The notes under the pieces are model-generated. The model searched no databases and was not told the origin of the DNA. It was given only the letters and a program-made list of their open reading frames with translations. Positions 11,900 through 61,750 of a DNA stretch of 64,000 nt are shown here, one piece after another (position 1 is the first letter of the stretch; the number at the start of each line of letters is the position of its first letter). The stretch is taken from assembly GCA_963514005.1 (NCBI GenBank), contig OY740798.1, positions 11,222,001 through 11,286,000 on the forward strand, in the 5' to 3' direction. A program made the translations under genes and the position numbers. Source of the stretch: Raja brachyura. Lineage: Eukaryota.

Positions 11900-12925
11900 G
11901 TATTAGTTTAGTTTTAGAGATACGGTGCGGAAACAGGACCCGAGGTCCACCGACCGCACCAACCAGAGGTCTCCGCACATTAAAAGGCCTGTCCCAATGA
12001 CTCGGCTTTACAGCAACTGTCTTCGACCTTCAAGCTCGAGGGTACTCGCCTGGGAAACCTCGAGCTGGACACACACACACGCAGGGGCCAGGGAAAGCGG
12101 GGGAACGCTGTTTGAAATTCACACCCGCGATGAACAGGAAGGTAAAAGACGACAGCACAGTGTACGGTAAGTCTTTTAGAGAGCGCGGAGCGGGGGGGGG
12201 GGGAGGGGTGAGAAGGGGAAAGAAGGGGAAAGAAGGGGGAAGAAGGGTGGGAGAAGGGGGGGGAGATGGAGTGGAGACACTTTTAAGAAGCCAGACAACT
12301 TCTAATAAAGTTTACCGGTCATTTTTCCTTGTTCCTGAAAACTCCAATGAGTCAATTAAAATGCACGGTCAGCAAAGGAGATTGCCTACGGCTGCCCTCG
12401 ACTGCTTATAACCACATAGCGACCCTACTCCACTGCACTATGAGTTCAAAAGAACCATGCCGGCCAATTGTTGCTCACGGAAAATGTTTCAACATGTTTC
12501 AAATGTTTCAACATGTGCCCTCGACCAAACTGAGGCTGCGAGTATGCGGGAACTTCCCTCGAGCATGAACGAGAGTTCAAGTGACCTAAAATGACCTCCT
12601 AGGACCACGTGTCGACCATGCTGCGAGTTTGAGTCGAGGGCAAACTCTTCTAAACTCGCCGAATAGGTTGCCACAGTAGGACAGCCTCTTAACACTATCC
12701 TACATACACTACGGACAATTTACACTTATACCGAGCCAACTTACCTAAATACTTGTATATCTTTGTAGTGTGGGAGGAAACCGAAGATCTCGGAGAAAAC
12801 CCGCGCGGTCACGGGGAGAACATACAAATTCCATCGAGACAGCACCCGTAGTCGGGATTGAACCCGGGTCCGTGATGCAGCAAGCACTGGAAGGCAGCAA
12901 CTCTACCGCTGCGCCACCGTGCTGC
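11900..12925 (-). mobile_element. tRNA-derived HE1-type (V-SINE) element, interrupted by a MITE
   Basis: Minus-strand head gcacggtggcgcagcggtagagttgctgcc with a B-box-like ggttcaatcc, core ggttttctccgagatcttcggtttcctcccaca, and a CR1-like tail ending in (CTAAA)n. Confidence 0.85.
11984..12689. mobile_element. Full-length PIF/Harbinger-like MITE with TAA target-site duplication
   Basis: taa|aaggcctgtcccaat ... agtaggacagcctct|taa: imperfect 15-bp TIRs and a 3-bp TAA TSD. The host SINE sequence resumes exactly on both sides. Confidence 0.85.
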
Positions 12926-13640
12926 AGAAAGGCAAAAAGTATAGTGAATAAGGCAGATGAGTTGAGCGCACTAAATGTTGCTTAGAAGTATGACATCACA
13001 GCTATTATAGAGATGAGGCAGATGGAGGATTAGCACTGGAAGCTTTTGTAACTGGTTCCAGAGTTTTCAGATGTGACAGAGGAGAGCACAACAAAGGGCA
13101 GTCATGAGTAAGGCAGTGACAATATTTTTGTTTAATGCTTTTTTCCGGACCTATGTACCGTTGGCAAGGTCAGCATGTACTGCTCAATCTTAAATGTCCT
13201 CCAACAGAGTCGCTTGCTGGTTATTTCAAAGGACCTTTAAGAGTCAACCACATTGCTCCAGGTCAAGAGTGATCTATAGGCCAGGCTGCATAAAGAATCT
13301 CAAAATCTCAGGAATGTTACAACGATGAACAAGAAAAAGGGAACAAATAAAGATGTACTGCAGACCCCAAGCAGTCTGAAGGAGGTAGAAAAAAATTCTG
13401 ATAAATGCAAAAACATTAGGGCAGTAACATGTGGGAATTTAATTTATCGTAATATTAACTAGGATACTGTCTGTGTAAACAGTTTCAAGAAGCTGCAGTT
13501 TTCAGAAGAACCCTTTAAACTAATTACCAAGCAAGATTAACCAGCGGAGTAACGAGGGGAAATTCTGTATTAAGTTCTAGGAAATTAAGTTCGATACATG
13601 GAATAGGTTTTAGTTTAAGAGCATTTTTGACATCATTCAG
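12926..13640 (+). mobile_element. Highly degenerate CR1 fragment (endonuclease region)
   Basis: agtatagtgaataaggcagatgag..tatgacatcacagctatt resembles CR1 APE motif SIxNKxDEL..YDIxAI; many stops. Confidence 0.55.
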
Positions 13641-18516: not shown

Positions 18517-19272
18517 GAAGACAAAAATGCTGGAGAAACTCAGAGGGTGAGGCAGCATCTATGGAGCAAAGGAAATAGGCAACGTTTCGGGTCGAGACCC
18601 TTCTTCAGACTGATGGGGGGGGGGGCGGGAAGTAGAAAGGAAGAGGCGGAGACAGTGGGCTGTGGGAGAGCTGGGAAGGGGAGGGGAAAGAAGGAGAAAG
18701 CAGGGACTACCTAAAATTGGAGAAGTCAATGTTCATACCGCTGGGGTGTAAACTCGCCAAGCGAAATATCAGGTGCTGCTCCTCCAATTTACGGTGGGCC
18801 ACACTCTGGCCATGGAGGAGGCCCAGGACAGAAAGGTAGGATTCGGAATGGGAGGGGGAGTTGAAGTGCTGAGCCACCGGGAGATCTAGTTGGTTATTGC
18901 GAACCGAGCGGAGGTGTTGGGCGAAGCAATTGCCAAGCCTACGCTTGGTCTCACCGATGTAGAGCAGCTGACACCTAGAGCAGCGGATGCAACAGATGAG
19001 GTTGGATGAGGTGCAGGTGAACCTCTGCCACACCTGGAATGACTGCTTGGGTCCTTGGATGGAGTCAAGGGGGGAGGTAAAGCGACAAATGTAGCATTTC
19101 TTGCGGGTGCAAAGAAAGTGCCAGGAGAGGGGGTGGTTTGGGTGGGAAGGGACAAATTGACCAGGGAGTTACGGAGGGAGCAGTCTCTGTGGAAAGCCGA
19201 AAGGGGAGGAGATGGGAAGATGTGGCCAGTGGTGGGATCCCGTTGGAGGTGGGGAATATGTCGGAGGATTAT
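18517..19272 (-). mobile_element. Penelope-like retroelement 3' fragment (GIY-YIG endonuclease plus pLTR)
   Basis: ORF 18707..19033 FTCTSSNLICCIRCSRCQLLYIGETKRRLG..HLRSV..VAQHFN..RKLEEQHLIFRL..P.GMN is a Penelope GIY-YIG domain, followed by the pLTR with a hammerhead-like core. Confidence 0.92.
18581..18610 (-). ncRNA. Minimal hammerhead-ribozyme-like motif of the Penelope pLTR
   Basis: Minus strand gt-CTGAAGA-a-gggt-ctcg-accc-GAAA-cg-tt: CUGANGA and GAAA boxes around a short helix II. Helix I pairing is weak. Confidence 0.55.
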
Positions 19273-19799
19273 TTCTTGGGTGAAAATGTTGGAGGATTAT
19301 TTGTTAAAGGAGTGTTATTAATAGTGGCTATTTAAGTTGCTACCCAAAATATTTGTAATAAAAGCTCTATGCGTAGATAAAAATATATATGCTGGTTACA
19401 TTTGTATTATAGTCAGGGAGCTTGCTGAGCACAAACTGGTTGCCTCATTTTCTACATCACAAATTGATTCTGTAATGCGCTTTGGTTCCTGATATCGTAA
19501 ATGACAGGCATAAGATACATCTCTTATAATACATGATTTGTTTTGGCCTGTATGAGTCAACTCCCTTTTAGTACTTTGACATAGGTTTAAATCTACACGG
19601 ATAGAATAATAAGTACATTGGGAAACTGTATTTGTGAATTCTGAGGGACGCATTTTAGCCTTCAGTTTTATTTGATCTAGATTGCAGCTTGTGTGAAAGA
19701 AATGAATAAACACATTGCATTTGCAATTTTTGTAAAGGAATTCAGAAGAAATTAACACTTTCAAATATTTACCTTTTCCTCTGGAGAACACCAGCATGC

Positions 19800-21932: not shown

Positions 21933-22039
21933 CTCAATAGTGAACAATTTTCGTTTCAATTTGAATGCAAGATCCTTTGTATCAGGCACATCAGAGATTA
22001 AACAATTAAGCCGAGGAAGCTGACGAACATGGAATAAAC
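21933..22039 (-). CDS. ELP4: ELP4 internal coding exon (equivalent to human exon 9), 107 bp
   Basis: ttttccttaag|GT TTA TTC ... ATT GAG|gtagga; (G)[35 protein letters not shown]. Matches human [35 protein letters not shown]. Phase 1/0, in frame with the previous exon. Not in the ORF track. Confidence 0.97.
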
Positions 22040-23064
22040 CTTAAGGAAAATTTAAATTAAGAAAAAACATGCTATCATGCAGCTGCATAAATTAAACAAG
22101 CTGATAGCAGAACTCTCCACAATTACATTCCTCACTGTCCCTTTTTAAACCAGGGATCGCCATCAGAAGCAATGAAGCAAACAGTGTGATTATGCTCAAG
22201 TAATCAAGCAGAATAAGATAAACAAAAATCCTTGTTCAAGTAAAACTAATTATATTTAGGTACAGATATGACATCCACAAAAAGAATTCTGTCGGTTGTC
22301 AAAACGGAGGCCCATTTGTGATATTTTCTCTTATATTTACAGTAAGCAAATGTGGCTATCACCTTGCTTGCTGCCCAAAAGCAATGCTGAATGATCTTTA
22401 TTTTATTAAATGCACCAGTAAGCAGCCACGAAAACATGGCTTATGGGTTGGAAACCTTGACTGACTGCAGCTTTTATAAATTAAATGTATTTTGAGGCTT
22501 CAGCCATTGACAAATTGTCACATGCATTTGTGGTAAACAGCCCTTAAAAGGGGCACAACATTCAGAATGGATGTGTAAAATAAATGAATATTTGGAAATG
22601 AAGCTCATTTATGACCGTTAGGAACTGGTGTATACATGAGGTCTGCTTTTAGCTTCGAGCGGTGTGAGCTCAAATCTAAGCTGATCTTTTGTGACAGGAA
22701 CATTGGCTGAGTTGGTGCAGTCTAGTCATGGTTAAGGGAATTGGTAAGCTCACTGGCCGAGTGGCTGCCTGGCTTCCTCTGCGTGAGTATTCCCAAAAGC
22801 CTGCCTACAATGATGCACATCTGATTGAGCACTGTCTTGGTAATTTGGCTTGACAACATGCGAGTAGTTGCCATGTTACTTTCACAGTCCTAATGCACAG
22901 TAAAAGATAAACAGCCTGACCAATAGATTGCTACATTGGGAGACAGTCAAAATGCAGATTCTGAAATGAAATCAATTACTACCTTATGGCAGACAAACTA
23001 ATTAAAGAGCAAACTGTTAAATATCTATAAATCACTTGGGTACTTTGGTCACAATTAGACTTAC
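22040..23064 (-). other. ELP4: ELP4 intron 8 (1025 bp), repeat-free, candidate enhancer-bearing
   Basis: Bounded by the exon 8 donor and exon 9 acceptor. Motif cluster cattgacaaattgtcacatgcatttgtggtaaacag at about 22505-22540. Confidence 0.8.
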
Positions 23065-37497: not shown

Positions 37498-39735
37498 TAA
37501 CATAGAAACATAGAAAAATAGGTGCAGGAGTAGGCCATTCAGCCCTTCAAGCCTGCACCGCCATTCAATATGATCATGGCTGATCATCCAACTCAGTATC
37601 CCGTACCTGCCTTCTCTCCATACCCCCTGATCCCTTTAGCCACAACAGCCACATCCAACTCCCTCTTGAATATTGCCAATGAACTGGCCTCAACGACCTT
37701 CTGTGGCAGAGAATTCCAGAGACTCACCACTCTCTGTGTGAAGAATGTTTTCCTCATCTCGTTCCTAAAGGAATTCCCCCTTATCCTTAGACTGTGACCC
37801 CTTGTTAGGACTCCCCCAGCATCGGGAACAATCTTCCTGCATCTAGCTTGTCCAACCCCTTAAGAATTTTGTAACTTTCTATAAGATTCCCCCCTCAATC
37901 TTCTAAATTCCAGTGAGTACAAGCCGAGTCTTTCCAGTCTTTCTTCATATGAAAGTCCCGACATCCCAGGAATCAGTCTGGTGAACCTTCTCTGAACCCC
38001 TTCTATGGCAAGAATGTCTTTCCTCAAATTTGGAGACCAAAAACTGTACGCAATACTCCAGGTGTGGTCTCACCAAAACCCTGTACAACTGCAATAGAAC
38101 CTCCCTGCTCCTGTACTCAAATCCTTTCGCTATGAATGCTAACATACCATTTGCTTTCTTCACTGCCTGCTGCACCTGCATGCCTACTTTCAATGACTGG
38201 TGCACCATGACACCCAGGTCTCGTTGCATCTCCCCTTTTCCTAATCTGCCACCATTCAGATAATAGTCTACCCTCATGTTTTTGCCACCAAAGTGGATAA
38301 CCTCACATTTATCCACATTATACTGCATCTGCCATGCATCTGCCCATTCACTCAGCCTATCCAAATCACCCTGCAGCCTCCTAGCATCCTCCTCACACCT
38401 AACTATACCCCCCAGCTTGGTGTCATCTGCAAATTTGGAGATGTTGCATTCAATTCCCTCGTCCAAATCATTAATGTATATTGTAAATAGCTGGGGTCCA
38501 GCACTGAGTATTGTGGTACCCTTGGTGAAGACAGGACCAAAGTAGTTATTCAATTGGTCTGTCATGTCCTTTTCCCCACAGATCAATTCACCTGCTTCTG
38601 ACTGCAAGGGACCAACATTTGTTCTAACTAGTCTCTTTCTCTTCACATATCTATAAAAACGTCTGCAGTCAGTTTTTGCACTCACTGCCTGCCATTCTGA
38701 AAAGGACCCGTTTACTCCTACCCTTTGCTTCCTGTCTGCCAGCCAGTTGTCTATCCACATCAATATTGAACCACCAATACTGTGTGCTTTAAGATTATAT
38801 ACTAATCTCTTATGTGGGACCTTGTCGAAAGCCTTCTGAAAGTCCAGATATAACACATCCACTGGTTCTCCCTTATCCACTCTACTAGTTACATCCTTGA
38901 AAAATTCTATAAGATTCGTCAGACATGATTTACCTCTTGTAAATCCATGCTGACTTTGCCCAATGATTTCACCACTTTCCAAATGCGCTGCTATCCCATC
39001 TTTAATAACTGACTCTAGCAGTTTCCCCACTACCGATGTTAGACTAACTGGTCTGTAATTCCCCGCTTTCTCTCTCCCTCCTTTTTTAAAAAGTGGGGTT
39101 ACATTAGCTATCCTCCAATCCTCAGGAACTACTCCAGAATCTAAGGTGTTTTGAAAAAATATCACTAATGCATCCACTATTTCCGTGGCTACTTCCTTGA
39201 GCACTCTGGGACGCAGACTATCTTGCCCTGGGGATTTATCGGCCTTTAATCCATTCAATTTACCCAATACCACTTCCCGGCTAACCTGGATTTCACTCAG
39301 TTCCGCCATCTTATTTGACCTCTGGTCCACTGCTATTTCCGGCAGATTATTTATGTCTTCCTTAGTGAAGACAGAACCAAAGTAGTTATTCAATTGGTCG
39401 GCCATGTCCTTGTTCCCCATGATTCTGACTGCAAGGGACCAACATTTGTTCTAACTAGTCTCTTTCTCTTCACATATCTATAAAATGTTGCAGTCAGTTT
39501 TTATGTTCCCTATCAGTTTCCTTTCGTAATCTATTTTCCCTTCCCTAATTAAGCCCTTTGTCCTCCTCTGCTGGATTCTGAATTTCTCCCAGTCCTCTGG
39601 TAGGCTGCTTTTTTTGGCCAATTTGTATGCCTCATCTTTAGTTTTTATACTATCCCTGATTTCCCTCGTTATCCACGGATGCACCACCTTCCCCGATTTA
39701 TTCTTTTGCCAAACTAGTATGAACAATTTTTGTAC
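37498..39735 (-). mobile_element. 5'-truncated young CR1 LINE (RT domain) with an internal insertion
   Basis: ORF 37945..39420 has NYRPVSLTSVVGKLLE, QHGF, YLDFQKAFDKV, FADDTKL, RPHLEYCVQF; 3' tail (TTTCTATG)n; frameshifts present. Confidence 0.95.
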
Positions 39736-42677: not shown

Positions 42678-43420
42678 TAAGAAATCACTTGTCCTTAATG
42701 TCAATTTAAATCTGGGTTTGTTATCGGACATCCACCGAACTTCACTAAATCATCACAAAAACAGTTTTGGGACAGTGTAAACAAACCTCCAATTCCAAAG
42801 TGAAAATTTAAAAAAACTGTAGATCCTGGAAAAATGATAAAGTTCTGACAAAGGGTCTTAGACCTGAAACTGTAACTTTGTGTTTCTCCCGACAGATGTG
42901 ACCTGGCACTCTAAGTGCTTCCAGCATTTTGTGTTTTTATTTTATCACCCTAATTTCAAAGTTCATTTAAGAACAATTTACAGCTACTCCACTGTATCAA
43001 ATGTAAAGTGCATACTTTGTTGCTCGACCAATGTCCATGCAGGACATGGCTTATTCTGGTTTATTCTGACCAGAAGTTCACTACTCTGGTTCATACTACC
43101 CTTTTTTTCAGACACGACTCATCTCATCCCACCATCATCCTGTGCAGCAACAGTGACATTCAGTCTTTGCACTGTACCCTGCTGAGAAACATATTCAGTA
43201 TATGAAATGGTGACAACATTTTTTGCAGTTTGAAACGGCAGGGAATAAACTTTAAAAAAACCTAGAATTAATCAGCCTTTTCTTAGGCATTGTTGCTAGA
43301 AAACCATGTTGAGAAATCTCAAAATGAAATAAGCAAGTTTGCTCTAAGGAAATATGGTGTTATCACTCCTATTAAACAGAAAAGATAATTCGAATAACTA
43401 TTCCACTTAAGGAGTCTAAC

Positions 43421-43609
43421 CTGGATAAGGTATGCTGGCACAGTAATCATACAGGCAGAGAGAGATGTTCTGAGAAGTCCACGGAGTGCATAGAGAAATC
43501 TAGTGAGACTGTATGCAGATTCTGGGTTTTCATTAAGGCCAACATCGTCTCCCCATAACACTGAGCCAAGTGAGTGGATTCCTATTCGCAGGATGTTCCT
43601 CTGTTTAGT
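43421..43609 (-). CDS. ELP4: ELP4 internal coding exon (equivalent to human exon 7), 189 bp
   Basis: cctgcag|ACT AAA CAG ... ATC CAG|gttaga; [63 protein letters not shown] (inside ORF 43319..43642). Matches human [22 protein letters not shown]...[29 protein letters not shown]. Phase 0/0. Confidence 0.97.
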
Positions 43610-44181
43610 CTGCAGGAAGAGAGGTGCAAATGAATGTGACAAAACAGCAGGGGTTTGCTTACAAATGACACCCTTCCTACCCAGTTTGCATTCTAACTTA
43701 CAAGATCTACAACAGCTACTGGACAGGTGACGAGTCTTTGAAATTTCTGTCTGGACTTGCTTTCCAGCTGCCTAACGGCTCATAAAACAGCTTGTTTCCT
43801 TGGCATATCAACAGGGAAGGATACCAGTAGAACCTTAATAAGAGCTGCACTTTTGCAAAAGCCTACATAGCTGCTAGCAAAGTGCCAAGAAAGGATCAGC
43901 GTATGCTAGACTTCCAGCTGGTTTGGGCTAGGATTCTGTTAACAAAAGCTGCCTGTGGTATCACAAACGATTCATGCTACCAAAAAGGATAGCTTATTCT
44001 ACACTTTTACTTACATGGAGAGACCAGTTGCCTAGACACACAAAAAGCATTGTGTAAATTTTTGTTTGATCATAAGCGACTGGTTGTGACAAAGAGTCAA
44101 ACTGAGATAGAAATCAGAAGGAAATGTGCACAAATTAATTGCTGAAAAGGATATCCAATAAAATACACATAATTGAGCAAA

Positions 44182-45127: not shown

Positions 45128-45212
45128 CTGGGGACTGGATCCATCAAATCCTTCCTCACGGATGACTCTCTGTATGGCTCGAAGCAGCTTGACGTAACCA
45201 AAGTTCATGTTA
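45128..45212 (-). CDS. ELP4: ELP4 internal coding exon (equivalent to human exon 6), 85 bp
   Basis: Minus strand reads tttttcatag|T AAC ATG ... CCC CAG|gtatgg, translating to NMNFGYVKLLRAIQRVIREEGFDGSSPQ. This resembles human ELP4 [24 protein letters not shown] (recalled). Starts in phase 2, ends in phase 0. Not in the ORF track. Confidence 0.95.
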
Positions 45213-48935: not shown

Positions 48936-49565
48936 TCACACACTGCATGCATCTCCTAAACCAAATGCGGCATAGATTAAGGGTTCCACAATGGCTTCAT
49001 CAGCATCTCAGAACCGGTGTGGAAGCAAGTTAATCTCAGTCTTGGGGGACTGTTTAAATTAATGACCATCGGGTCTTCTGATTAAAAAAACTGTTAAGAA
49101 AACTGCATGTTATATGTACCTATGTTTGTTGAATGTTTTTTTTTTCAATCCTTGTTCTGAGAATAGTTACCTTCATCACAGATATCCAATTTGTTAATAC
49201 CCATTGCATCACCTACAAAACAAGACTATATCTACTTAAAATCACTTATGTGAATTTAGTGCATCCTTAAATGGATGCCTTGGAGTGGGTTAACAAAGAA
49301 TATCAGTTGCACAATTGTTGTAAACAAAATTGAATTTGTTTGAAATCAAATGAAATTGGAAGTAATTGTTCAAAAACAAAACTCCATCAAAAGTTTAATT
49401 ATATCAAAAGTTATGCTTAAAAAAATAATGGCAGCAATAGCCTTATGTCGACTGGATACCAATAGCTCTGATTTCCAAAAAATCAACTGATGAACATGAA
49501 GACAGAATAGCAATAAATGTTTTTTATTTTTTATTGCTGGTGATTCAGAATAATTATGCTATGTA

Positions 49566-49980
49566 TCAAAAAGGCTTTTGGCACATTGGCCTTCATGAGT
49601 ATTGAGTATAGAAGTTGGGAGGTCATGTTGCAGTTGTTTAAGATGTTGGAGAGACTGCACTTAGAGTATTGTCTTCAGTTCTGGGTACAATGTTATAGGG
49701 AAGATATTGTCAAGATTGAAAGGGTTAAGAGAAGATTTACGAGGGTGTTGCCAGGACTAGAGGGTCTGAGTTATCGGGAGAGGTTGAGTAGGCTGTGTCC
49801 CTATTCCTTGGAGCGCAGGAGCATGAGGGGTAATCTTAAAGAGGTGCATAAGATCATAAGAGGAATAGATCGGGTAGATGCACAGAGTCTCTTGCCCAGA
49901 GTAGGGGAATCGAGGATCAGAGTACATACTGTAAAGGTGAAAAGGAATAGTGTTCAAGGTGAAAAGGAAAAGATTGAATT
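49566..49980 (+). mobile_element. CR1 LINE fragment
   Basis: KKAFGTLAFMSIEYRSWEVMLQL..HLEYCLQFW..FTRVLPGLEGLSYRERL, the first half of ORF 49556..50269. Confidence 0.9.
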
Positions 49981-49984
49981 GGAA

Positions 49985-51265
49985 CTAGACTATGTGGGAC
50001 CCGTTGGGTCCCTGTCACACGGAAGGCCTGGTCCCCCAACGCAACCTGTTCCCCAATGCAATATTCCACCGCTCACCCGTTCCCCAATGCCACTCGTTCC
50101 CCCAACGCAGTATTCCACCACTCACGCCTATCCTCCTCCCAGCAAATTCACCCCTCCCTGTCCTCCTCTCCTTCTATTCCCCCCCCCCATCCCACCATGC
50201 CGATCACCCCGGACCCCTTCTACCCCCCTCCATTCTAGTACCTCTCTACCGCACTCCCTCCCTCCCTAATGCACGGGTGCAGTGCATTAGGGCCGCTCCT
50301 GGTGTCCGCACCCACAGGCAGGAGCCGCTGGAGCGCTGCCCGTCCCGGGACCCGCGGTGTCCCTCGCCAGCGGGTAGACAGCGGGGTGTGGCGCTGCCGG
50401 CCCCCATCTCCCTCCTCCGCATTTCCCTCATACTCCTACCCTCACTCCCATTCCCTGCCCCAGCACCTACCCAGGTCGTAGAGCAGTAGCAGGGTCTGGA
50501 ACTCGGCCTGGTTCTCGTACTCGGCCCGGCCCTGGCTGTAGTTGGCCGAAGCACATGCGGACCTGGGCCTTGATGGAGCCGGGTTCGCTGTGCCGGGGGC
50601 TGGGTGAGGGTGGCTGCCCGCAGAGCAGGAAGCGAAGGCTGTGCTGCAGGATGATGGCGGCTGGGCGGCCCCCGATGCGCTGGTATACCTTGAACCAGGC
50701 CCCGGGCTTGGGCACGACTCCAGCCCTCAGCTCGGCCGCCGCCTGGGCTCTAATCCAGGCCCCGACTTCATCTCCGGGCTCATCCCTGACCCCGGACCCA
50801 GGCTCTTTCTTGCTTCCTGCCTCGGCCCAGTCCCCGGGCTTGTCCTTGGCTCCAGTTCGGGCCCAGTCACCAGGCTCAGCCTGCTGCGCCACCCACCCCA
50901 CCAGGTACTGCACGGCCGCTGCTCCTCGGGCGTCAGCGCCACTCTTTCATGGCGAACTCCAGACGATTGACAGTGGACGCGGCCAATCAGTGCGGCGACG
51001 CCCCTGCCTGATTGACAGGAGAGGAGACCAATCTGCATGGCGGTGACGAAAAGCAATCTGCGCATACACAGTTTTTACTATTTTTAAACCTTAATAACTT
51101 TTACAATATACCATCGATCAGAACTAAACTTGTTGCACTCGCAGCACAGAGGAACGGTGAGTAAGCTGGCGAAAAATCATAGCGCTATTGCGTACCGTTT
51201 TTGCACAAATAGAAAAACCATACATACCGGAACAGCACAAAATCATAGTTTTATTTATGTATAGA
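49985..51265 (-). mobile_element. Non-autonomous Helitron, 1281 bp
   Basis: Minus strand: host A|TCTATACATAAATAAAA (5' TC) ... hairpin gggaccc-aac-gggtccc (50012-49996), 7 nt, CTAG|T host. A|T insertion site, no TSD, no TIR, no RepHel ORF. Confidence 0.9.
50471..50962 (-). pseudogene. SAC3D1: Captured, internally deleted SAC3D1-like exon fragment inside the Helitron
   Basis: Colinear peptides across frameshifts: AMKE, AAVQYLVGWVAQ, WFKVY/QRIGGRPAAIILQHSLRFLL/CGQP, KAQVRMCFGQL, YSQGRAEYENQAEFQTLLLLYDLG, then gtaggt. Compare recalled human SAC3D1: AVKEY, [45 protein letters not shown]. Confidence 0.8.
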
Positions 51266-51427
51266 TATTTTTCAAGGTACATTATTTTGAATAATTTTGT
51301 ACAAATAAGTATTTCAACAGAGGAAATACCAAAAGTATTATATGTTTCTCACAGATTAAGATAAAATCTCTCAAAATATGACTGCTTTCCAGCAACCAAC
51401 TAGTAATTAATTCTGCACAACCCTGCG

Positions 51428-51700
51428 TTAGAACATAGAACAATACAGCAGAGAAACTGGCCCTTCGGCCCACAATGTCCTTGTCAAACATGATTTCAAG
51501 ATAGACTAATCACATCTGCTTGCACATGGTCCATATCCCAGAATACTCTACATATCCATGTGGCTATCTAAAAGCCTCTTAAACCTTTTATATCTGCCTC
51601 CACTATCACTTCTGACAGCATGTTCCAGGTACCCACCACCCTAGTGTAAAAAAACAGCCCTGCACATCTCCTTTAAACATGGCCCTCTCATCTTTAACCT
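51428..51700 (-). mobile_element. Old CR1 3' tail
   Basis: tagaacatagaacaatacagcagagaaactggcccttcggccc...ttccaggtacccaccaccct. Confidence 0.8.
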
Positions 51701-57879: not shown

Positions 57880-60800
57880 AATATTAACAGGATTAGACAA
57901 AATCAACATGGATTAATGAAAGATAAATTTGATTTGAAAATCTACTAGATATTTTGTGGATGCATCAGGAACAATAGATAAGGGAGAACTGCTGGATGTG
58001 ATGTGTTTGTATTTTCATGAGATTCTTTTCTAAAATTCCAAATTAGAAGTTAAGAGTGCAAAATGCAAACACAGGGAATTGAGGAGCGAAATACCAGCAT
58101 GGATTGCTAACAGACAATATTGATGGATGGGTCTTTCTCAGGGTGGCAGGCGTGGCCAATTGGTACCGCTTAAGCTGTATCTATTCATACAATGCATCAA
58201 TGATTTAGTTGAGGGAACGGAACATAATATTTTGAAGTTTGCTGATGACATGAAATTGACTAGGATTGTGAGATGTCAGAAGGATGCAGAGGCTTGAAGG
58301 TGATGCACACAAGTTAATTGAATGGGCAAATACATGGCAGAGGCAGTATAACATGGAAAAATGTGAAATTATCCACTTCCGTAAGGCAGACAAGCAGAGA
58401 ATTAGAGTCATAGAGTGATACAGTGTGGCAAAACAGGCCCTTTGGCCCAACTCGCCCATACCAGCCAACAATGTCCCAGCTACATTAGTCTCACTTGCCT
58501 GCGCTTGGTCCATATCCCTCCAAACCTGTCCTATCCATGTACCTGTCTAAATGTTTCTTAAATGATGGGCTAGTCCCAGCCTCAACTACCTCCTCTGGCA
58601 GCTTGTTCCATACACCCACCACCCTTTGTGTGAAATAATTACCCCTCGGATTCCTATTAAATCTTTTCACTGTCAATTTGAACCTATGTCCTCTGGTCCT
58701 CGATTCCCTTACTCTGGGCAAAATACTCTCTGCATATACCCGATCTATTTCTCTCATAACTTATGTATACCTCTATAAGATCTCCCCTAATCGTCCTGCG
58801 AACAATGGAATAGAGACCCAGGCTACTCAACCACTCCCTATAGCTCACACCCTGTAATCCTGGCAACATCCTCGTAAATCTTTTCTGAACCCTTTCAAGC
58901 TTGACAATATCTTTCCAAAATGGTGCCCAGAACTGAACACAATATTCTAAATGCGGTCTCACCAATGTCTTATACAACTGCAAAATGACCTCCCAACTTC
59001 TATACTCAATACTGACTGATGAAGGCCAAAATGCCAAAAGCCTTTTCGACCACCTTAACGACCTGCGACTCGAGCTTCAAGGAGCCCGATGTACTCCTAG
59101 ATCCCTCTGCTCTACAACATTACCCAGAGGCCTACCATTTACTGTGTAGGTCCTGCCCTATTCGACGTCGCAAATGCAACACCTCACAATTTTCTGTATT
59201 AAATTTCATCAACCCTTCCTCTGTCCACCTGGCCAATCGATCCAGATCCTGCTGCAATCTTTCACAACCATCTTCACTATCTGCAAAACCACTAACTTTG
59301 TATGTTCTCATCCAATGATGTAGATGTAGATGACAAACAGTAACGGGCTCAGAACCGAACGCTGAGGCACACCACTAGTCACAGGCCTCCAGTCTGAGAA
59401 GCAACCTTCCACCATCACCCTCTGCTTCCTTCCATTGAGCCAATTTGCTATCCATTCAGCTATCTCTCCTTGGATCCCATGTGATCTAACCTTCCAGAGC
59501 AGCCTCATGCGGAACCTTGTCGAACGCCTCACTGAAGTCCATGTACAGAACATCTACAGCTCTGCCCTTGTCAACCTTTTTGATCACGTCTTCAAAAAAA
59601 TCAATTAGATTTGTGAGACACGACCTCCCATGTACAAAACCATGCTGACTATCCCTAATCAACCCTTGCCCATCTAAATGGCTGTATAACCTATCGCTCA
59701 GAATACTCTCCAGTACCAACTACATATTTTTAAGCTCACCGGCCTATAGTTCCCAGCATTTTCCCTGCAGCCCTTCTTGAAAAGAGGTACAACATTTGCC
59801 ACCCTCCAGTCTTTCGGCTCCTTTCCTGTATTTAAGGACGACTCGTAAAATTCAACCAGGGCTCCCGCAATTTGTTCTCTAGTTTACCACAATGTCCTCG
59901 GATTTTTCTACCTTCAAATACGACAGTACCTTCAGTACTTCTTCGACAGTAACCCTGACTGCTCTCAAGACACTTCCAGTGACTGCTCCAATTTCCTCCA
60001 TCCTACTGTCTTTCTCCTCAGTAAATACAGAGGAGAAATATTCATTTAGGACCTTACCCATCTGCTGTGGCTCCACACAGAGGTGACTGCTTTGATTCCT
60101 GAGAGGTCCCACTTTGTCTCTGGTAACCCTTTTCCCCCTTATATATTTATAAAATCTTTTGGGATTGTCCTTAATGCTCCCCCGCCACAGATATCTCCTG
60201 GCCCCTTTTTGCCCTTCTGAGTTCCTTTTCTAGTTTACTCCTTAGTTTCCAAAACTCCTCCAGTGATGCACTTGAACCCAGCTGTCTATACGTCCCATGC
60301 ATCTTCTTGTTTTTGACTAACTTCTCAATTTCCCTCGTCAGCCAAGCTTCCTTACTTTTGCCTGTTTTGCTCTTCACTCTAACAGGGACGTACACATCCT
60401 GAACTTTCTTCAGTACACTTTTAAAAAATTCCCACTTGGCCGATGTTCCTTTCCCCTCAAATAACCTGCTCCAGTCAACTTGAGCGAGACTTTCTTTCAT
60501 ACCTTCAAAGTTGGTCTTACTCCAGTTGAGCATTTAAACTCGTGGACCATCTCCATTCCTATCCGTAACTTTCTTAAACCTAATCGAACTGTGGTCACTG
60601 GTCGCAAAAGGCTCCTCCACACACACTTCATTAATTTGCCCGTCCCAATTTCCCAATACTAGATCCAGCATTGCTCTCTCACGTGTGGGGGCCTCCACAT
60701 ACTGCTTAAGAAAACTCTCCTGAACACCTTTGAGGAATTGTACCCCATCTAAACCTTTCATGCTATGATTTCCCCAGTCTATATTGGGAAAGTTAAAATC

Positions 60801-61750
60801 CACTACTATAACAATCTTATTTGACCTGCAGCTGTCTGCAATCACCCGATACATTCGTTCTTCTAATTCCCGTTGACTATTCGGGAGTAGTACACCCCGA
60901 ACAAGGTGATCATCCCTTTCTTGTTCCTTAGCTCCACCCATACAGCCTCACTAGACCAACCATCCGTAATGTCACTTCTGAACACAACCGTGTCCTCCTT
61001 AACCTTCAATGCAACCCCCCCCCTCCTCTTTTTCCCTCACCCCTGTCTCTCCTGAAGCTCCTGTATTCTGTTTAAATAGTGAAAGAATGAGAACCTCAAA
61101 TGAGAAATACTTAATATGTCCTTGTATATCAGTCACTGAATGCAAACATGCAGATGAAGCAGACATTTAAGATAGCAAATGGAACTTAAGCCTTTAGAGA
61201 AAAGCAGCTTTGATTCCAGGATCAAGGATAATTTACTGCAAATATACAAGTCAAAGGTGAGAACACACATGGACTATTTGGCACATTTCTGGTCTCCATA
61301 CAGGTAGTTTACTAGAATGATTCCTGCAATGTCAGGACTCTCTTAAGAGGTGGGGCTATCTTGTGAGGTGGGATTAGCCGATTAGTTATGTATTCGCTGA
61401 AAATTAGAAAAATGAGAGGGGATCTCATTGAAAAGTTCAAATTCCTGACATGACTTGACAGTCTTGATTCAAGGAGGATGTTTTCCCCAACAGAAAGTGT
61501 CGCACCAAGGCTCACAGGATATGGGGCAAGACATTAAAGAATGAGATGGAGAAATTATTTATTCACAAGATGAGCCACCTGTTGAATTCTGAACCAATGA
61601 GGGCTGAATATATTTACGATGATGATAAATAATTTTCTGGGCTCAAAAGGTGTCAAGCAATATGGTGAAAGAGCAGGAATGTGGCACTGAGAAAGAGGAT
61701 GAAGCATGATCGTGCTGAATGGTAAAGCATGTTGTTCAAAGGGCTTACTC
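57880..61750 (+). mobile_element. Old CR1 (57880-58402 and 61068-61750) split by a younger antisense CR1
   Basis: Left part has caacatgga (QHG), tttgctgatgac (FADD), tggcag..tataac..aaatgtgaa. Right part resumes at tttaaatagtgaa.. and runs through atgagaggggatctcattgaa (MRGDLIE) to a 3' UTR. Confidence 0.8.
58403..61067 (-). mobile_element. CR1 LINE of about 2.7 kb (APE endonuclease plus RT, frameshifted)
   Basis: ORFs 60534..60941 (DFNFPNIDW, PTRERAMLDLVL, SDH), 59486..59719 (QHGF, YMDFSEAFDKVPH), 58684..59037 and 58491..58757; (ACTCTATG)n-like tail. Confidence 0.95.

Follow-up and report, generated by a model that had tools for sequence, protein, structure and literature searches.

Overall Structure of the Element

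The 64,000-nucleotide window of the Raja brachyura genome analyzed here contains a 1281-bp segment with transposon-like ends and an exon-like interior. This locus raises the question of whether a mobile element has taken up part of a host gene and, if so, from which gene, by what route and with what consequence. The segment is a non-autonomous Helitron on the minus strand. It very probably carries a broken genomic fragment of SAC3D1, i.e., exon 1 from codon 26 onward together with intron 1, which has spread as passive cargo. The parts of the element, in its own 5′ to 3′ order, are listed below.

49985..51265 (−): non-autonomous Helitron, whole element, 1281 bp; ends recurrent at many loci, with A|T targets
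51036..51265 (−): Helitron left end, common to subfamilies with differing interiors
50471..50965 (−): captured part of SAC3D1 exon 1, running from codon 26 to the end of the exon; interrupted by deletions and containing a shortened skate repeat insert
50400..50470 (−): GT donor, intact, followed by the beginning of SAC3D1 intron 1, which aligns to the parent intron
50270..50396 (−): GC-rich segment typical of the window subfamily (22/30 copies), absent from the SAC3D1 locus
50126..50269 (−): purine-rich low-complexity tract, differing in length from copy to copy
49985..50125 (−): Helitron right end, with a 49-bp subterminal direct repeat (50027–50124), a hairpin (50012–49996) and a terminal CTRR (49988–49985)

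The Helitron hallmarks claimed for the minus strand in the initial annotation were all located: a 5′ TC at 51265, a hairpin with a 7-bp stem and a 3-nt loop lying 7 nt ahead of the terminal CTRR, and an insertion between A and T. The hairpin is kept across copies. By itself, it could arise by chance (z −1.47; 17 of 200 shuffles equally good), and the evidence for a Helitron is therefore the recurrence of the ends. A genome search with the element returned 94 matches from 40 scored of 8,963 first-look candidates, with similarity ending at both element ends. In a first sample of 30 loci, the base ahead of the 5′ end is A in 19 of the 21 copies where that end was located (window copy left out), and a T follows the 3′ end in all 17 (window copy counted). 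A second sample of 30 loci, which overlaps the first by at least two, gave A|T targets at 12/13 left ends and 24/26 right ends. An exact-pattern scan of the genome yielded 609 matches for the left end and 4,811 for the right, against 0 for reversed-pattern controls. Both termini recur as a repeat family at many loci. Flank matches in the ten two-ended copies of the first sample span 0–4 nt, with 0 in six of them, i.e., no consistent duplication, as had been claimed for the target site. At one locus (L007:1400–1530), the right end of one Helitron abuts the left end of the next, head to tail.

The genome contains 96 matches to the RepHel domain (PF14214). Ten of these loci were fetched, and three bear related ends in the right orientation, all three degenerate. 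The left end of L109 is 68.6% alike over 185 nt and is accompanied by a partial right end, while the right ends behind RepHel in L097 and L105 are 88.7% and 82.3% alike over ~60 nt. Among the ten fetched loci of the 96, none holds an intact autonomous partner whose ends match, the nearest left end being that of L109. The RepHel element at this locus (L109:6904–13735) is degenerate and ~6.8 kb long, and its left end contains a DECA-CCAAT site together with GC-box-like and TATA-like ones.

SAC3D1 Cargo and Its Parent Gene

The frames of the window gave no Pfam match (0/4 frames) and nothing significant in the PDB, and the name SAC3D1 therefore came through the parent gene. A search of the genome with PF03399 led to a single intact gene of two exons at C32:6,960,580–6,964,492. 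In the PDB, SAC3D1 is the top match for each exon (E values of 3e-22 and 4e-22; 1e-9 and 5e-8 for GANP), and all six sequence-database matches to its protein, from skates and rays, are named SAC3D1. Compared pairwise with skate SAC3D1, the window frames are 54% identical over 136 aa (E 7e-30) and 80% identical over 25 aa (E 1e-10). Within the best core, identity to the parent is 94.8% for the family majority (231 aligned nt) and 87.3% for the window copy (213 nt). The SAC3D1 identity first proposed from the letters alone is thus borne out by an intact parent in the same genome.

The alignment of the element to this parent runs from codon 26 across the GT donor into intron 1. Since similarity continues past the donor, the capture took place at the DNA level, as had been suggested. 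The donor hexamer is unchanged in 17 of the 23 copies where it was located, among 30 examined. The earlier description of the cargo as a captured CpG-island first exon holds for the 3′ part of exon 1 and the intron; the cargo starts at codon 26 and is devoid of the first 25 codons, 5′ UTR, promoter and host start codon of SAC3D1. The motifs first described are present in the frames stated, but two of them do not come from the host, as WFKVY and the M of AMKE fall on deletion junctions.

The claimed CpG-rich interior corresponds to the 50001–51000 bin, which has 66% GC, 66 CpG and an observed/expected ratio of 0.64, against 0.15–0.5 in most bins of the window. Two other bins are CpG-richer, namely 12001–13000 (0.80) and 1–1000 (0.68). 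The CpG richness of the cargo is inherited and is now decaying: median divergence of copies from their own majority is 18.9% at CpG sites and 5.75% at non-CpG sites. This decay rules out a protected CpG island, and the pattern is what would be expected of methylated, unconstrained DNA. To judge from its sequence, the window cargo encodes no protein and its frame is dead. Neutral decay was judged from CpG loss together with the frameshifts, and the cargo most likely has no function.

Capture History

Exon 1 of SAC3D1 contains a repeat insert that is present in both skate proteins compared (446 and 444 aa) and absent in four other rays (309–346 aa). In the parent gene (L034:1504–2553, minus; C32:6.96 Mb), this tandem-repeat insert amounts to ~175 aa, compared with ~110 aa in two other skates. 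The cargo holds a short form of the skate-only insert, which would place the capture in the skate lineage, where the cargo was likely taken up once.

A pattern for the undeleted exon matched, genome-wide, the parent and two copies. One of these two copies, the early form L177 (C8, 2.6 kb), has the same cargo 5′ junction as the window type and is free of an 11-bp deletion found in most window-type copies. It retains intron 1 up to the acceptor region in blocks 75–84% identical to the parent intron, without the two LINE inserts found in the present parent intron, and is bounded by a Helitron end on each side, with the family right end following the acceptor region. L177 is thus an early form holding the whole ancestral intron 1. 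Another copy, L037, carries the 11-bp deletion yet retains a stretch lost in later forms, and the window type has both losses. The 11-bp deletion, which shifts the frame, is present in 26 of 30 window-type copies, and the parent form in none of the 30. These slowly decaying copies preserve a datable series, from the whole intron through the frameshift to remnants in other subfamilies. Capture mechanism and the exchange of cargo between subfamilies are therefore testable across skate genomes.

The window copy itself was already in place when at least one related species diverged. In species B, a contig spans the 5′ junction (51193–51488) with 73 bases inside the element at flank-like depth, and the insertion is therefore common to both species. 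A contig of species E has 28 bases inside the element, below the 31-base threshold. In the contigs of four organisms, the cargo is covered far deeper than the flanks, a depth that is not a copy number.

Copy Number and Subfamilies

The exon–intron junction has 463 exact matches in the genome, the parent included, against 0 for the control. The cargo has thus been amplified with the element. For the 41 matches on C1, 40 stretches were fetched (L209–L248), two matches lying only 318 bp apart. A window-type left end lies beside the cargo in 1/40 and a right end was matched in 27/40. Where a left end was found in these remnants, it was mostly that of another Helitron. Sorted by size, with subfamily classes assigned by eye, the 40 loci comprise 27 mid-sized remnants (including the window-type copy), 11 minimal ones and 2 of another form. 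Conversely, among 30 loci chosen by their window-type left end, SAC3D1 is present in two. These counts (1/40 and 2/30) rule out that all junction matches are of the window type, which is therefore a minority.

The shorter SAC3D1 remnants on C1 belong to subfamilies that differ from the window type at both the left and the right end, and cargo exchange or end replacement is therefore implied. Window-type copies probably number in the low hundreds; the segment of their own at 50270–50396 has 156 candidates. The junction pattern matches 8/30 and 5/25 window-type copies in two samples. If the other subfamilies decayed alike, all SAC3D1 remnants would come to ~2,000, a rough figure because classing was by eye and there is no independent match rate. 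This Helitron family has made at least two captures, and that of SAC3D1 has passed through several subfamilies.

Other Captured and Possibly Captured Interiors

A sister subfamily (L080, L113–L124; 497 first-look candidates) carries, as its sequence indicates, upstream DNA, exon 1 and the intron start of ALG13, antisense to the element. This cargo combines ~330 bp from upstream of the gene with its first coding exon (81 nt) and ~100 bp of intron, and is 74% identical to the parent L169:2732–3236 (C13:8.80 Mb) over 543 columns. Exons 1 and 2 alone gave nothing significant in the PDB. The gene is named from its second exon, which matches proteins named ALG13, its third exon, which matches yeast ALG13, and the Helitron copy, which is identical to skate ALG13 at 24 of residues 1–27.

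The commonest other interior behind window-type left ends, with 1,953 candidates, is that of subfamily B (L063, L082, L086, L089, L125–L149). It is GC-rich and exon-like and closes with a donor-like site. No source gene emerged for it: each of the 24 other loci fetched bears a Helitron end, and a protein search with the interior found nothing, which is weak evidence. The segment 50270–50396 is possibly a further capture. No source for it appeared in 30 loci fetched from its 156 candidates, of which 25 contain SAC3D1 cargo and 5 element ends only. Another GC-rich interior behind the same left end, at L090:1082–1202 (minus), may also be a further capture.

Insertion Site

The element lies within an intron of ELP4 and is sense to that gene. 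Three ELP4 exons were recognized on the minus strand of the window (21933–22046, 43403–43612 and 45128–45212), the second of which matches PF05625 (E 3e-12), and the whole window appears to lie within ELP4. ELP4 introns hold PAX6 enhancers. Two features lie downstream of the element.

49544..49984 (+): LINE fragment, presumably CR1-like; flanking sequence that stops exactly at the element 3′ end
45128..45212 (−): next ELP4 exon downstream, on the same strand; acceptor 4,773 bp past the element 3′ end

As judged against one comparison locus, the LINE does not resume beyond the element, from 51266 onward, and loose contig ends agree. Because it halts at the element 3′ end with no continuation opposite, a simple empty site is doubtful, and so is the simple join first proposed for the sequence before insertion. 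The LINE may have been cut by flank deletion or by recombination between copies. In four runs, none of the 15 joints inspected of 516 skips the element, and no empty site was seen among them.

Mechanism of Capture

Helitron capture has been modelled as template switching or gap repair. For the SAC3D1 cargo, this route, by which host DNA would enter between two family ends, is judged somewhat better than an even prospect. Stepwise deletion and spread followed the uptake, with remnants left in subfamilies that have other ends. Movement would depend on a RepHel protein supplied in trans, with rolling-circle copying that starts at the left end and stops at the hairpin; the available part of PMC4778049 describes RepHel acting in trans from the left end and the hairpin terminating copying.

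A second route is plausible at a lower level, about one chance in three: copying would have read through a missed terminator or used the end of a second element. Specifically, a left end inserted in exon 1 would have read to the right end of a second element at the intron 1/exon 2 boundary, in an allele later lost. The earliest form, L177, accords with this end bypass or chimeric transposition, as it stops at the intron 1 acceptor region and then passes into a family right end. Furthermore, read-through has been demonstrated experimentally (PMC4778049, partial text), and bats provide one composite case (PMC4224331, partial text). Such an event, however, needs two insertions in one gene, one of them within coding sequence. 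Moreover, the distance between the left end and the start of the cargo is similar for different cargos (250–310 nt), and that of ALG13 is antisense. No end of the window type, the only type searched for, was found in 30 kb around the SAC3D1 and ALG13 parents. In bats, Thomas et al. found no ends at the parent in 26 cases and ends beside it in 3 (PMC4224331, in the part seen). Because both outcomes occur there, a parent gene free of such ends is compatible with either route. Template switching or gap repair is retained as the preferred route.

Promoter-Like Sites and Alternative Readings

Two composite sites lie between the left end and the cargo.

51011..51032 (+): first DECA-CCAAT site, 11-bp spacing; also present in the L109 left end
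50966..50987 (+): second DECA-CCAAT site, directly ahead of the cargo

The geometry, DECA and CCAAT separated by 11 bp, is taken from bioRxiv 10.64898/2026.02.16.706105, of which part was available. In L109, the DECA-CCAAT site lies ahead of a TATA-like box, which is not retained in the window type. Since the site occurs in the left end of a RepHel locus, it is likely part of the Helitron's own promoter.

These sites permit a reading in which the element is a portable exon trap, its DECA-CCAAT promoter firing through the captured exon, with splicing from the captured donor to host exons further downstream, here those of ELP4. This is considered unlikely. The two sites are canonical in spacing, at least one is present in 19 of 30 copies, and none occurs elsewhere in the window; moreover, the donor is intact, the element is sense to ELP4, and HelibatN3 acts in this way (PMC4778049, partial text). 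Nevertheless, the TATA-like box of L109 has not been kept, CpG decay points to methylation, and the retention of the motif is probably about what neutral decay would leave. In addition, the ATG at 50950, which was made by a deletion junction, meets a stop after five codons. Similarly improbable is a broader proposal that skate Helitrons repeatedly couple a TALE/NF-Y (DECA-CCAAT) left-end module to captured housekeeping first exons with live donors (SAC3D1, ALG13 and at least one unidentified). Hundreds to thousands of alternative first exons would thereby be scattered, some of which, such as the one sense in the ELP4 intron, might drive skate-specific transcripts or early-embryo regulation. 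Spread of the SAC3D1 fragment as passive cargo remains the preferred reading.

Finally, a processed SAC3D1 pseudogene or segmental duplicate lying by chance between Helitron-like ends is exceedingly improbable, its one favorable point being the lack of a Pfam match for the window frames, while the intron is retained, exon 2 is present in 0/40 junction loci, and ends and cargo occur as a unit at dozens of loci that are unlinked and whose flanks are unrelated. A retrocopy was likewise rejected on the kept intron, the absence of exon 2 in 40/40 and the lack of a target duplication.

Comparison with Known Systems

The closest known system is HelibatN3 of Myotis, which carries, in ~1000 copies, NUBPL sequence reaching from the promoter through the 5′ UTR and first exon into part of intron 1 (PMC4224331, PMC4778049; both in part). 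As far as these texts go, the two systems are alike in being non-autonomous, in carrying the 5′ part of a host gene with its donor, in their high copy number and in their potential for exon trapping, and the anatomy of the ALG13 subfamily (upstream DNA, exon 1, intron start) is nearly identical. However, the SAC3D1 cargo has neither host promoter nor start codon, and a promoter, if there is one, would have to come from the Helitron itself. The cargo therefore does not qualify as a captured promoter, whereas its ALG13 sister does in anatomy. The ALG13 cargo is antisense, and chimeric transcripts are known for HelibatN3 in these texts, whereas the skate case is one of sequence only.

Bat Helitrons as a whole are reported, in the available text of PMC4224331, to have captured 54 genes, counted over 12,382 copies, and to show a bias toward 5′ ends. 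In Xenopus laevis, Heli1Xen1 carries 19 gene fragments in 64 insertions, at most 17 per gene, and 17 of the 19 are 5′ ends (PMC12001565, partial text). Like the skate family, it is thus one family with several host genes, mostly represented by 5′ ends. On this partial account, the Xenopus captures are young and low-copy, whereas the skate SAC3D1 cargo has at least 462 remnants, is older (~6% non-CpG divergence) and has crossed subfamilies. The 5′ bias is called unexplained in the parts seen of PMC4224331 and PMC12001565; the skate captures repeat it, toward the 5′ ends of housekeeping genes.

Stepwise gene capture in non-autonomous elements has reportedly been found in maize Helitrons, which share serial cargo remodelling with the skate family but belong to a plant system. 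No report of Helitron gene capture in cartilaginous fishes, or of a Helitron with SAC3D1, appeared in the titles or abstract openings searched, and a prior entry in a repeat library such as Repbase or Dfam is possible. The same kind of capture is already known from bats and frogs, and the cartilaginous-fish case seems new as far as the literature found extends. High-copy Helitron gene capture in vertebrates, known from bats and Xenopus, thus reaches cartilaginous fishes, and in skates its remnants will confound the annotation of SAC3D1 and ALG13 as well as read mapping and the calling of CpG islands.

Other Features of the Window

An Rfam search of the window gave 0 matches. Shorter frames on the minus strand at 18707–19296, 58684–59076 and 60534–60947 are retroelement remnants, presumably LINE- or Penelope-like, and the frame at 18710–19168 is without a Pfam match. 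The longest such frame, at 37945–39450 (minus), encodes 501 aa that we take to be reverse-transcriptase-like.
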